Of a stretch of DNA of 35,218 nt, positions 15,146 to 18,669 are shown piece by piece. The position numbers were made by a program, and so were the translations under genes. The notes under the pieces were generated by a model. That model worked only from the letters and a program-made list of their open reading frames with translations, did not search any database and had not been told where the DNA came from. Position 1 is the stretch's first letter, and each line of letters begins with the position of its first letter. Origin of the DNA: a virus (taxonomy: Duplodnaviria; Caudoviricetes); the IMG/VR virus record IMGVR_UViG_3300037751_000551, positions 1 through 35,218 of that record. One strand, written 5' to 3'.

Positions 15146-15715
15146 CGTGTCCTCGGGTTGATATTGCAGGCGGTTGAGCGCCAGCTCGGGAAAGGCCGGC
15201 CGGTTGGTCAGCGCCACGGAGGTGATGCGCAGGATGCGCTGGGTGGCCTTGTCGAACAGGAACGCCGGCGACAGGAAGCGGTACTCGCGCGCCCGGAGCA
15301 TGTCGGCGGCGCGCGGCGTCCAGGCCGCTCGTGCCCAGATCGCGCCCTCGCGCAGCTCCAGGGCCTCGATCCATCCCGCGGCCGGGGACGGCTGACCCGG
15401 CGGGCCGATCTCGGACCCGTGCTCGAAGTCCAGCGGCAGGGGCAACCCGTGCGCCCGTGTGGCCGCGATCACCGCGGCGGGGTCGGGATTGTTCCAGCGC
15501 CGGTCGTCGCGGGTCTGCACCTCGGCGCCGGCGGGCATCAGCTTGATCCACTCCGGCACCTGGCCGTCCGCCAGCAGCTCCACCGCCAGCGCCACGCCGC
15601 TCGCCGGCGCGGGCACCGCCTCGCACAGCGCGAGCGCGGGCGAAGAGTCGAGGCCGCCCTCACGGGCGGCTCCGGTCGACGCAACGCAATGGGTGTCGGA
15701 GCAGAGCGGGTCCAT
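14639..15715 (-). CDS. Prohead protease (Mu gpI-like)
   Basis: PEWIKLMPAG, LPLDFEH, PAAGWI, WTPRA, EYRFLSPAF and ALTNRP motifs; start placed at ATG 15715 from promoter spacing (15727 is the alternative). Confidence 0.93.
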   Translation of the reverse strand: MDPLCSDTHCVASTGAAREGGLDSSPALALCEAVPAPASGVALAVELLADGQVPEWIKLMPAGAEVQTRDDRRWNNPDPAAVIAATRAHGLPLPLDFEHGSEIGPPGQPSPAAGWIEALELREGAIWARAAWTPRAADMLRAREYRFLSPAFLFDKATQRILRITSVALTNRPAFPELALNRLQYQPEDTMTPEQRKTLCAALALADTATDAEIVTAAQKQHTALATAAEQAKTPPLDKFVPRGDYDAQVAKATAAETKLADQAKAEQAKAIDAEISAAVSAKKITPATADYYRAMCAQAGGLEQFKKFIAAAPVLAPDQVIQGDPAKKGAAALTADQLAICKTMGMDTEAFAQARAE

Positions 15716-15771
15716 GTCCCGGAGCATGCGGGACGCGGCACAAGGATGTCAGCGTGCAATAGTGCGCAGGG
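15716..15771 (-). promoter_or_regulatory. Putative Mor/C-activated late promoter of the head-tail operon
   Basis: 24-bp CCCTGCGCACTATTGCACGCTGAC (15771-15748), then a -10-like CATGCT ending 7 nt before the ATG; identical copy at 30418-30441. Confidence 0.75.
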
Positions 15772-15967
15772 CGTCACGGGCTGTGCCGGGCAGCCGCAGC
15801 CGGCGCATGAGCCGCGCCACAGCCCGCACCTCGCGCGCTTCCGCCCGGGCATCGAGCGTCGCCCGGTGTGGATCGGGTCTGCGCCACGCCGGTGGGAGCG
15901 CCCGCGCGATCTCCTCGCGCACGGCGCGCTTGGCGCTGAGCGGCTCGGGGGCGAAGGGGTCAGCCAT
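15749..15967 (-). CDS. Hypothetical protein (72 aa)
   Basis: Start overlaps the upstream stop, GGAG RBS; last gene of the accessory run. Confidence 0.5.
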   Translation of the reverse strand: MADPFAPEPLSAKRAVREEIARALPPAWRRPDPHRATLDARAEAREVRAVARLMRRLRLPGTARDALRTIAR

Positions 15968-17087
15968 CCGCGCCGGCGCCGGCGTCCGCCGGCAGGAAGC
16001 GCGCGGCCAGCTCGCGCAGCTTGGCCTCGGAGATCGTGGGCTGCCCCGCCTTGCGCCGCGCGAAGTGCTTCATCAGCCAGGTGTAATCGCGGTCGTTGAT
16101 CCCATGCTCGCGGCAGACGGCGCGCCCGGACCCCAGCTCGTCCTTGCGCTGCACCACCGCGCGCTGCAGCCGCTTCACCAGGAGATCATTCGCACCCAGT
16201 GCTTCAGGCGCTTCAGGCGCTTCAGGCGCTTCAGCCGCTTCAGGTGCTTCAGGTGCTTCAGGTGGGCCGGGTGCTTCAGCGAATGCTTCACAGTCCGGCG
16301 GGCCTGAAGCGGGTGCTTCAGAGCGGCGCTTCGCTTCAGGTGCTTCAGCCGGAAGGGGTGCTTCAGCGGACCGACGCTCGTTTTGAAGTGGGGTCTGAAG
16401 CATCCCGCCCTGTGCTTCAGGTGCTTCAGCGGGTGCTTCAGTCGCCGCTGAAGCGGTTGAAGCCCCCCTGAACCGCCACCCGGACATCCTCAGCACCGCC
16501 CCCGCGTTGGCGAGCTGAAAGGCGAGCAGCAGGGCCAGCACGGGCAGCACCTTGGGCAGCGCGGCCCAGGCGTCGTAGCCGGCCGCGGCCGGGGCGTCCC
16601 GCGCCTCGATCAGCGCGCGGCGCTGCGCGCGCAGGGCGGTGAGGGCCTCGCGCTGGCGCTCGAGGGAGTCCAGCCAGCCGGCGCGCACGGCGCTCTTGGC
16701 CTCGTCCTCGCGCAGGGAGCGCTCGGCGGCGGCGATGTCCTGCTCCAGCGCCGCGATGAGCCCGGGCGCCGTGGCCTGCGTCTCGGCGGCGCGCTCGCGC
16801 TGCGCGGAGGCCTGGCGCCAGGCGGAGTACTCGGGGCCGCAGATCACCCAGGCCGGCACCAGCACCATCACCAGGATCAGCGCCAGGCCCGTGGCCCGCG
16901 CCAGGCGCCCGGGCTGGTAGACCAGGTACAGGCCCACCAGCTCCGCGCCTAGGGAGGCGACCAGGCCCACAGCCGCGCCCATCGTGGCCTGCCAGTAGGG
17001 GATCGCGTGCGCCTGCACCACCACCACGCCGGCGGCCAGGATCAGCGCCGGCAGCAGCACGTTCTCGATCAGCTCCAGGGGTTTCAT
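15960..17087 (-). CDS. Multi-pass membrane protein with a coiled coil, an EAP-repeat linker and a basic HTH-like C-terminus
   Basis: Start MKPLELIENVLL with GGAG RBS and ATGA overlap; 3 N-terminal hydrophobic segments, coiled coil, 4th hydrophobic segment, repeats, then GRAVCREHGINDRDYTWLMK. Confidence 0.8.
   Translation of the reverse strand: MKPLELIENVLLPALILAAGVVVVQAHAIPYWQATMGAAVGLVASLGAELVGLYLVYQPGRLARATGLALILVMVLVPAWVICGPEYSAWRQASAQRERAAETQATAPGLIAALEQDIAAAERSLREDEAKSAVRAGWLDSLERQREALTALRAQRRALIEARDAPAAAGYDAWAALPKVLPVLALLLAFQLANAGAVLRMSGWRFRGASTASAATEAPAEAPEAQGGMLQTPLQNERRSAEAPLPAEAPEAKRRSEAPASGPPDCEAFAEAPGPPEAPEAPEAAEAPEAPEAPEALGANDLLVKRLQRAVVQRKDELGSGRAVCREHGINDRDYTWLMKHFARRKAGQPTISEAKLRELAARFLPADAGAGADG
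16201..16463. repeat. Array of GCTTCA/TGAAGC hexamers in both orientations
   Basis: 16 GCTTCA (seven at 9-bp period, 16201-16260) and 4 TGAAGC (16305, 16396, 16449, 16458), counted by eye. Confidence 0.9.
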
Positions 17088-17881
17088 GTCGTCTCCTGCC
17101 AGGTGTCGCGCGGCACCTTGCGGCCCGCCGCCTTGAGCGCACCGCGCGCCCGCCGTACCGCTTCGGGCAGCCCGATCTTGCGGGCCGCCAGGTCTTTCAG
17201 CAACCGCAGCACGCGGGCGCTGGTCGGGTCTCCCCGCCGTTTTGCCGACGACCCGGCGAGTGCGTAGGCATGATCGTCCGCGTTGACTACCCGCCCGGCC
17301 GCGGCCAGGCGTTGCAGCGCCTTGCCGGCCGTCTCCGGCATACACCCCACGTGCTGCGCGACCTGCAAGGGCGTCGCCGGGCCATCGCGCAGCGCATGCA
17401 AGGCGCCTGCACGGACGGAGCCCCACGCCCGCCGGGAAGGCACCGGCGCCGGCGGCGCAGGCCCGGCGCCATTGCCGGGTGGGAAGTCCCGCGCCACCGG
17501 CGCCGGTGTGGACTTGTGCGCACTCCTCTGTACTTTCGCCCGCGGCGCCCGCGCCGGCCGGGGCGCCGGCTTCGGCCGCAGCGGCGCCTCGGCGCGCCGG
17601 CCCACGTCCGCCATTGGGGAGTCCGCGGGCAGCGCGGCCGTCGCCTTGCGCGGCGCCGGGGCCTGCACGCCGCGCTGCAGCGCCGCCAGCGTGGTCAGGC
17701 TGGGCTCGCGGCCGGCGTCCACCGCTGCGCACTGCATGCACTCCCGGCAGGACAGCGGGCGCAACTTGCCAGCACCTCCGGCACCTCCGGCCCCACTGAG
17801 GCGCAGCTCGCGGTTGCCCTTGCACACGGCGACGGACAGCAGACCGTAGGCGTGGCAGCGGAAGTGGGTACGCTCCGTCAT
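17084..17881 (-). CDS. Hypothetical protein with a Cys-rich N-terminus and a winged-HTH-like C-terminus
   Basis: Start MTERTHFRCH overlaps the mor stop; CRECMQC motif; ALRDGPATPLQVAQHVGCMPETAGKALQRLAAAGRV. Confidence 0.7.
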   Translation of the reverse strand: MTERTHFRCHAYGLLSVAVCKGNRELRLSGAGGAGGAGKLRPLSCRECMQCAAVDAGREPSLTTLAALQRGVQAPAPRKATAALPADSPMADVGRRAEAPLRPKPAPRPARAPRAKVQRSAHKSTPAPVARDFPPGNGAGPAPPAPVPSRRAWGSVRAGALHALRDGPATPLQVAQHVGCMPETAGKALQRLAAAGRVVNADDHAYALAGSSAKRRGDPTSARVLRLLKDLAARKIGLPEAVRRARGALKAAGRKVPRDTWQETT

Positions 17882-18300
17882 TGCCGGATGACCTCGCTCA
17901 CGCGCATGTCGCGCGCCACGATCTGCTGGATGCGCCGCTCCGCCAGGCCGAAGCGGCGGGCCAGCTCGGGCACCGGCGTGCGGCGCTCCCGATACGCTGC
18001 GCGGATCGCGCGGTCGCGCGCCGGGATCGTCGCCGAGCGGAGCGTGGGCACGGTAAGCACCGAGCCGCCCGCGTGCCGCGCCAGCGCCTGGGCCGTCGTC
18101 ACGCCCAGCCGCCGCGCCAGCGGGTGCGCCGCCCCGACCGCGGACGGCACGGTCAGCCGCGCGCCGCTGTATTGCCGGAGCAGCGCCAGCGCCGCCGGCA
18201 GGCCGATGGCCCGCGCGACCTCGCCGTACGCCGCGGGAAGGTCTTCCACCCGCACATCCTCCAGGTACGGTGCCGCCGGCGTCGCCGCGCTCGCATCCAT
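17878..18300 (-). CDS. mor: Mor/C family transcription activator
   Basis: DLPAAYGEVARAIGLPAALAL...RDRAIRAAY...VPELARRFGLAERRIQQIV. Confidence 0.88.
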   Translation of the reverse strand: MDASAATPAAPYLEDVRVEDLPAAYGEVARAIGLPAALALLRQYSGARLTVPSAVGAAHPLARRLGVTTAQALARHAGGSVLTVPTLRSATIPARDRAIRAAYRERRTPVPELARRFGLAERRIQQIVARDMRVSEVIRQ

Positions 18301-18315
18301 GCCGCGCCTCCTCGG

Positions 18316-18669
18316 TTAGAGTCTCGGGCGGAGTCGCCGGAGCTTTGTGCTCCGGCGGTCCTCGCGCATCGCCATGCTCTGGTACCGGGCCAGGGCCCGG
18401 TCGGTCTCGGCGGCGCGCATCCAGCGCGCCCACACCGTGCGCCAGTGCAGGCCGTAGTGCAGTTCCACGCCGCCCGACCAGTCCCGCGCCCGCACACGCA
18501 CCGCGCGCGCGAGGAGCACGCACAAAGCGTGATCGAGCACCAGGCGCCGGAATCCGTGCCCCCCCCTGGGCGGCAGCTCCTTGGACTCGACGATCCGTCG
18601 CAGCGCGGCCAGCCGCTCCGCGTTCGTCAGCGCCACCTCAGGCGTCTTCGGCTTCGGCGCGGGGCTCAT
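18316..18669 (-). CDS. Hypothetical protein
   Basis: ORF in the minus-strand operon with a plausible RBS. Confidence 0.6.
   Translation of the reverse strand: MSPAPKPKTPEVALTNAERLAALRRIVESKELPPRGGHGFRRLVLDHALCVLLARAVRVRARDWSGGVELHYGLHWRTVWARWMRAAETDRALARYQSMAMREDRRSTKLRRLRPRL

Follow-up and report, generated by a model that had tools for sequence, protein, structure and literature searches.

A two-orientation hexamer array inside the gene for a predicted membrane protein of a Mu-like phage: a candidate self-binding DNA-membrane anchor

Why should the gene for a predicted membrane protein of a phage carry, within a single part of its coding sequence, twenty copies of one hexamer in two orientations? 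We addressed this question for a stretch of 35,218 nucleotides (IMG/VR record IMGVR_UViG_3300037751_000551), hereafter referred to as the window, which was identified as a Mu-like transposable phage by Pfam and PHROG scans of its genes. Genes for MuA, MuB, Gam, GemA, and Mor lie upstream of the gene of interest and those for protease I, capsid, and tail proteins downstream on the same strand, with the repressor, lysis, and terminase genes being located on the opposite (plus) strand. The ends of the phage are not contained in the window, and the portal gene was found in a near-identical contig past the end of the window (placement by arithmetic). The late genes of this phage are split, with head and tail genes following Mor on the minus strand and lysis, terminase, and portal genes running from the repressor on the plus strand. 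An open reading frame (ORF) of 265 amino acids with a weak match to helix-turn-helix (HTH) domains and a Pro/Ala-rich middle lies directly upstream of the gene (17084-17881, minus strand), and a relative of this ORF occupies the corresponding place in the related locus L003. A 138-bp tandem repeat (4.3 copies) at positions 1-596 of the window adjoins baseplate genes and probably represents tail-fibre repeats. The features of the gene are as follows.

15960..17087, minus strand: gene for a 375-amino acid protein with a membrane anchor, coiled coil, linker, and HTH; GGAG precedes the ATG
16839..17072, minus strand: predicted membrane helices 1 to 3, residues 6-24, 38-56, and 65-83 (hydropathy, structure model, and conservation)
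16593..16835, minus strand: coiled-coil hairpin, about residues 85-165 (model helices 61-132 and 136-163; conservation)
16494..16550, minus strand: predicted membrane helix 4, residues 180-198 (hydropathy)
16201..16463, no single strand: array of 20 TGAAGC/GCTTCA sites, 16 + 4 by orientation, coding for the disordered linker, residues 204-297 (codon nulls and 6-mer cluster scan)
15990..16196, minus strand: C-terminal XRE/Cro-like HTH domain, residues 298-366 (structure models), with two hexamers inside

No other cluster of 6-mers in the window approaches the array in strength. An initial annotation of this DNA had described 20 exact copies of TGAAGC or GCTTCA, in both orientations and more than one reading frame, in the linker-coding DNA between 16201 and 16463, and all of these were recovered on recounting. 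On the plus strand, 16 copies read GCTTCA and four read TGAAGC; on the coding (minus) strand, 16 are translated in one frame as x-E-A, three as AS, and one as MLQ. The two dyads that had been reported were also confirmed, at 16305-16320 and, with a spacer of 10 nucleotides, at 16396-16419. Two further hexamers are present in the HTH-coding part (16172 and 16067). Outside the array, the window contains 21 copies compared with 19.3 to 19.6 expected, showing that TGAAGC is not enriched genome-wide. A codon null built from 5,930 phage codons and run 20,000 times gave means of 2.6 forward and 0.05 reverse hexamers for the gene, with a highest total of 6, compared with 18 forward and four reverse copies observed; synonymous permutation within the gene (5,000 runs) gave a highest total of 10. 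Glutamate is encoded by GAA at 16 of 17 positions in the linker, at none of 13 in the membrane and coiled-coil part, and at 9% of positions phage-wide. The constraint on the array in the window gene therefore acts at the level of DNA rather than of protein, as the initial annotation had surmised. The extended consensus of the array is CTGAAGC(A/G)C, with C preceding the core in 18 of the 20 copies.

Hydropathy and a structure model agreed with the four transmembrane segments, coiled coil, repeat-encoded linker, and helical C-terminus previously read from the translation. The start position is common to seven full-length homologues, and residues Q25, H27, W32, G41, E49, and P78 in the region of helices 1 to 3 are conserved in the family. 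In the model the coiled-coil hairpin is placed between membrane helices 3 and 4, with a conserved R135-x-G137-W138 at its tip. Basic residues that follow helices 2 and 4 suggest that the coiled coil is periplasmic and the HTH cytoplasmic. The pLDDT of the model is below 50 for the linker (residues 204-293) and about 90 for the C-terminal helical domain. Folded alone, this domain, earlier annotated as HTH-like, was most similar to 2a6c (Z of 6.9, rmsd of 4.7, 67 aligned residues) and to the XRE protein 2o38 (Z of 6.7, rmsd of 4.3, 67 aligned), both values being under the clear range of the tool (Z of 8). Among the best 20 fold matches, 18 are DNA-binding or repressor-type by title, and we assign those matches to the XRE/Cro class. 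Foldseek with the domain returned no match at an E value of 0.001, with lambda repressor domains heading a weak list (E of at least 2.4). The C-terminal domain of the window protein is, as judged from these models, a candidate XRE-like HTH and a likely DNA-binding tail.

The protein belongs to a family without a name. Pfam scanning of the window protein yielded no family and no HTH model, PHROG scanning was also negative, and Foldseek with the full-length model gave only generic helical matches. A tblastn search with the window protein and an HTH-less relative found no match among 50,697 GenBank phages. The clusters retrieved by Atlas searches had no names and were mostly viral, and DUF7343, with a score of at most 0.83, is a lead only. 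A profile search placed 147 clusters in the family (58 at E of ≤1e-10), and both the membrane domain and the HTH were present in 104 of 150 family proteins. The family has no Pfam or PHROG model; no Pfam family was common to the 94 members scanned, one or two of which showed weak matches to HTH_3 or HTH_37, and the Halomonas members have been named helix-turn-helix proteins by NCBI. Sampling of genomes for new members yielded 6 of 401, 4 of 133, 7 of 52, and 1 of 151. The carriers are phages, islands, and plasmids, mostly of Proteobacteria, and the named hosts are mostly Gamma- and Zetaproteobacteria. Some HTH-bearing genes were found in Mu-like phages and some on Halomonas plasmids, and others adjoin genes for primase-helicases, RecT/SSB, integrases, RecD2, TraI, or MobI together with FlhDC-like regulators. 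Twenty loci contributed 162 neighbouring ORFs, of which 140 were scanned; several loci gave no recognisable neighbour, and all neighbourhoods with recognisable genes resembled mobile elements and often replication modules. Most annotated HTH-bearing relatives do not adjoin Mu-type genes, and their downstream neighbours are not conserved. Two gene copies from Halomonadaceae (L044 and L090) have a frame that stops after about 120 amino acids, and L137/L138 is another split copy.

The membrane and coiled-coil domain also occurs without an HTH, recognisable by the motifs QxH..W, WS..E, and NSxxRxGW, and is frequent in the early regions of Mu-like phages (for example, L008, L009, L016, L019, L032, and L062); no Pfam model was found for this form. 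Given that the domain persists without the HTH in many such regions, it has a role that does not require DNA binding.

We examined whether relatives carry words of their own. In seven close homologues the membrane part is kept and the linker is wholly different, each having its own peptide repeat, and an EAP linker kept with scrambled codons, which the initial annotation had named as evidence against a DNA-level function, was not found among the homologues. From 176 loci, 150 with the membrane domain were retained and, after 11 rows with partial or open-ended ORFs had been dropped, 75 distinct genes remained, reduced to 60 by removal of sequences with an identity of 80% or more. Enrichment of a private 5- or 6-mer reached significance (corrected P of <0.01) in 11 of 30 HTH genes and in one of 30 others (Fisher, 0.0025). 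The lone exception, L014, passed the HTH model, giving a count of 12 of 31 HTH genes compared with 0 of 29 HTH-less genes, a contrast that rests on few independent losses and for which the Fisher value overstates the evidence, because 24 of the 29 HTH-less genes fall into one, weakly supported group of the membrane-domain tree; the tails of HTH-less genes are also short. Array-bearing genes are distributed over several groups of that tree. Random flank windows in an earlier round gave a significant word in 7 of 104. Relatives thus carry words of their own, with a significant array being present in 12 of the 31 HTH genes and absent from the other 19, the Halomonadaceae genes included. Inference of words from the protein alone gave 55 of 136 linkers compared with 31 of 136 shuffles and was too noisy to be used as a test.

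Words occur in two orientations: GGTTAC in L003 (9 + 5), TCGAAA in L035 (11 + 7) and L061 (12 + 9), TGCGC in L049 (28 + 21), CGTAAC in L027 (6 + 4), and TGAAA in L004 (5 + 3), the orientation counts overlapping for those words that are parts of palindromes. The sites are short and irregularly spaced and number up to 49 per gene (L049). In 8 of 12 genes tested the word was also enriched over a codon null in the conserved codons of the membrane domain, again in both orientations (10 compared with 1.2 in L035, and 21 compared with 3.3 in L049); the null for L061 used even codon usage, with no background codons. No such enrichment in the membrane-domain coding region was apparent for L003, L027, L057, L134, or the window gene. 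About 3 kb upstream of the gene in L092 (gene-oriented positions 1474-1700) is a non-coding cluster of nine TTTCC/GGAAA words beside a DnaA box and before a RecD2 helicase gene, and the linker-coding part of the gene in L092 shows a mild excess of this word.

Sequence comparison among relatives showed the word to change together with the HTH and not with the membrane domain. L175 and L176 share 46 to 48% identity with the window protein in the HTH and 23 to 25% in the membrane domain, and their HTHs belong to its HTH group; they carry six and three copies of TGAAGC, respectively, in linkers that read VEA or IEA instead of PEA, with the base before TGAAGC in L175 being mostly T rather than C. 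Conversely, P0003 is 89% identical to the window protein in the membrane domain and 39% identical in the HTH and has a different linker repeat. Similar pairs, P0001/P0002 and L175/P0068, were apparent on the trees. Among 39 labelled genes, 25 of them labelled by eye from linker peptides, the word matched that of the nearest neighbour in 26 of 34 scorable cases when neighbours were defined by HTH identity and in 15 of 34 when they were defined by membrane-domain identity. The partial r of the word was 0.40 with the HTH and -0.02 with the membrane domain, or 0.58 and 0.10, respectively, for the 14 DNA-labelled rows alone. Other genes with the same type of helix were enriched in the words predicted from the HTH helix (GTAAC, 10 compared with 1.7; CGAAA, 14 compared with 3.1; TGCGC, 31 compared with 4.5; and TGAAG, 12 compared with 2.8), the helix patterns having been chosen after the data were seen. 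In the remaining HTH genes the corresponding values were 7 and 9.1, 32 and 18.6, 39 and 41.3, and 17 and 29.8, with CGAAA thus somewhat raised in other HTH tails too. Linker and HTH adjoin and could travel together by recombination. The array is a real, DNA-level feature of this unnamed family of mobile-element genes.

With regard to function, we consider it quite probable that the TGAAGC array is bound by the product of its own gene. The product would reside in the inner membrane and carry, at the end of a long flexible linker, an XRE-like HTH that grips the array in the linker-coding part of the gene. The cytoplasmic HTH would read the 5- to 6-bp word as a half-site, and several anchored copies would bind together, so that the spacing and orientation of the sites need not be fixed. 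New copies of the word might arise through slippage and inversion and then be kept by selection, and a private HTH/word pair for each element would prevent cross-binding between related elements. A gene bound by membrane-held copies of its product would tether the phage DNA to the membrane. Such a self-binding anchor is the reading that we favour, with reasonable rather than strong confidence, and its likeliest purpose would be to position or retain the DNA of the element through replication and inheritance, in the manner of chromosome anchors such as RicO. The broader proposal, of a widespread one-gene DNA-membrane tether of phages, islands, and plasmids in Gram-negative bacteria, in which the gene would serve as its own centromere, HTH and word would co-diversify into a readable code, and each element would possess a private, ATP-free anchor, seems to us evenly balanced.

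A regulatory role for the array is unlikely, although it is the main alternative. The bound HTH would block transcription through its own gene and so limit the amount of membrane protein, with tethering being a side effect; with the same low probability, the real job (for example, exclusion) would lie in the N-terminal domain, perhaps together with reduced read-through into downstream genes. Repression is the usual function of XRE-type domains, early operons of Mu-like phages retain membrane domains without an HTH, and the head genes directly follow the gene in both the window and L003, which share the order Mor, gene, protease; in L004, lysis and terminase genes follow the gene instead. In the window, however, there are no sites near any upstream region. 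Exact copies of the hexamer are absent over 4.9 kb on the upstream side of the array, an arrangement more in keeping with a docking array than with the operator of a promoter. Neither sigma-70 promoter nor terminator patterns were found across 15600-18400. The numbers of short, irregular sites, up to the 49 of L049, would also seem to exceed the needs of an operator, and, again unlike what this reading would suggest, the downstream neighbours are not conserved.

Still less probable is that the array is neutral, having arisen through slippage and template switching within a linker free of constraint, with word and HTH co-varying as mere neighbours. A simple tandem repeat with a unit of 9 bp accounts for seven of the 20 copies (16201-16262), and one low-depth contig from a different sample contains a one-unit insertion of 9 nucleotides, so slippage does act at the array; the inverted arms, at 19 to 23 nucleotides, exceed the length of the hexamer, and many HTH genes are without arrays. 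Slippage in a free linker does not, however, explain words woven in two orientations into the conserved codons of the membrane domain, and neutrality is also at odds with the recurrence of one word in genes that have similar HTHs but unrelated linker peptides and with the lack of an array in all 29 HTH-less genes.

The array might instead be a signal for another protein, either a decoy for a host enzyme of the Eco57I type, an alternative raised in the initial annotation, or a site similar to the gyrase site of Mu or to an origin; we regard this as very unlikely. CTGAAG, presumably the Eco57I site as that annotation stated, is contained in 18 of the 20 copies, but the window has 13 instances of CTGAAG/CTTCAG at other places, the words of relatives are different, and in L175 the base preceding TGAAGC is mostly T rather than C. 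Transposable phages are not known to need an origin, and a DnaA-box cluster was detected in one of 14 loci checked (L092), where TTTCC words lie beside the upstream box. The strong gyrase site of Mu maps near genes G and I (PMC10052514), and the window gene precedes I; the iterons of lambda, similarly, are described as lying inside gene O (PMC7466680). The gene adjoins I in two of four Mu-like loci examined (the window and L003, not L004 or L175), and most annotated HTH-bearing relatives are not beside Mu-type genes, leaving the analogy with the gyrase site weak. Neither the decoy nor the gyrase-site reading is supported, given that the word changes, differing between close relatives and tracking the HTH of the gene itself, and that position is not conserved. 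Folding of mRNA by the two-orientation repeats, which might, for example, make ribosomes pause once the last membrane helix has been translated, is least probable of all, given that, although the window linker folds better than shuffled sequences (z of -4.35, or -2.7 with motifs kept intact) and 9 of 15 linkers had z below -2 relative to dinucleotide shuffles, L175 and L176 share the word with no excess of folding (z of +0.2 and +0.5), indicating that RNA structure is not the shared feature, L051 folds (z of -2.45) with no array, and pairing alone gives no reason for the word to track the HTH.

If the self-binding anchor is real, mobile elements of Proteobacteria would possess a self-contained means of holding DNA at the membrane that is undescribed in the open literature searched, and the positioning of genomes within the cell by transposable phages and islands would become testable. 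Matched pairs of HTH and word, which can be read from sequence, would also make the family a natural library for the study of DNA-recognition codes, and such pairs could serve to build orthogonal locus-tethering tools. No description of the family or of the combined design was found in open PubMed Central and bioRxiv text.

Each element of the design nevertheless has precedent. Transmembrane transcription regulators act on promoters, whereas the candidate sites here lie within a coding sequence. They resemble the window protein in combining membrane helices and a DNA-binding domain in one chain (PMC10269533), and the terms "XRE" and "phage" were not found in the main text of that report. For lambda O, the binding sites of a phage protein likewise lie in the middle of its own gene (PMC7466680), but O initiates replication, and its iterons are long and regular and are accompanied by an AT-rich tract, in contrast to the irregular 6-bp sites and predicted membrane protein of the present phage, which carries MuA and MuB. 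The TraA/TraB-clt systems of Streptomyces plasmids also comprise a membrane-anchored plasmid protein that binds short repeats at or partly in its own gene, the repeats differing between plasmids (PMC3583192); TraA, however, is a 688-amino acid FtsK-type translocase, no more than 16 bp of clt are contained in traA, and no Pfam match to an FtsK-type ATPase domain was obtained for the window protein or 94 members. RicO (bioRxiv 10.64898/2026.03.06.710092), RocS, and RacA each bridge a specific DNA motif and the membrane with one protein, as proposed here, but are chromosomal proteins of Firmicutes. In RicO the DNA-binding domain is N-terminal and an amphipathic helix C-terminal, and the sites are located in the region of the origin; the order of domains is reversed in the window protein, which has an N-terminal, polytopic four-helix anchor with a coiled coil, a C-terminal HTH, and sites inside the gene. 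The initial annotation had suggested a loose likeness to actinomycete plasmid Spd proteins. In SpdA2/sps of the Streptomyces plasmid pIJ101, the site of a DNA-binding protein of a mobile element is located within the coding region for the protein itself, and segregational stability is lowered when either the protein or the site is lost (PMC4170104). SpdA2 is a 135-amino acid protein with one conserved palindrome, whereas the window protein has 375 residues, four predicted membrane helices, and an XRE-like HTH, and "transmembrane" was not found in the main text of the SpdA2 paper (PMC4170104). Rather than a single palindromic site conserved across the family, there are many short sites, mostly in Proteobacteria, with a word that differs between members and varies with the HTH. 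The window protein would work in a similar way to these systems but lacks their defining features where these were tested.
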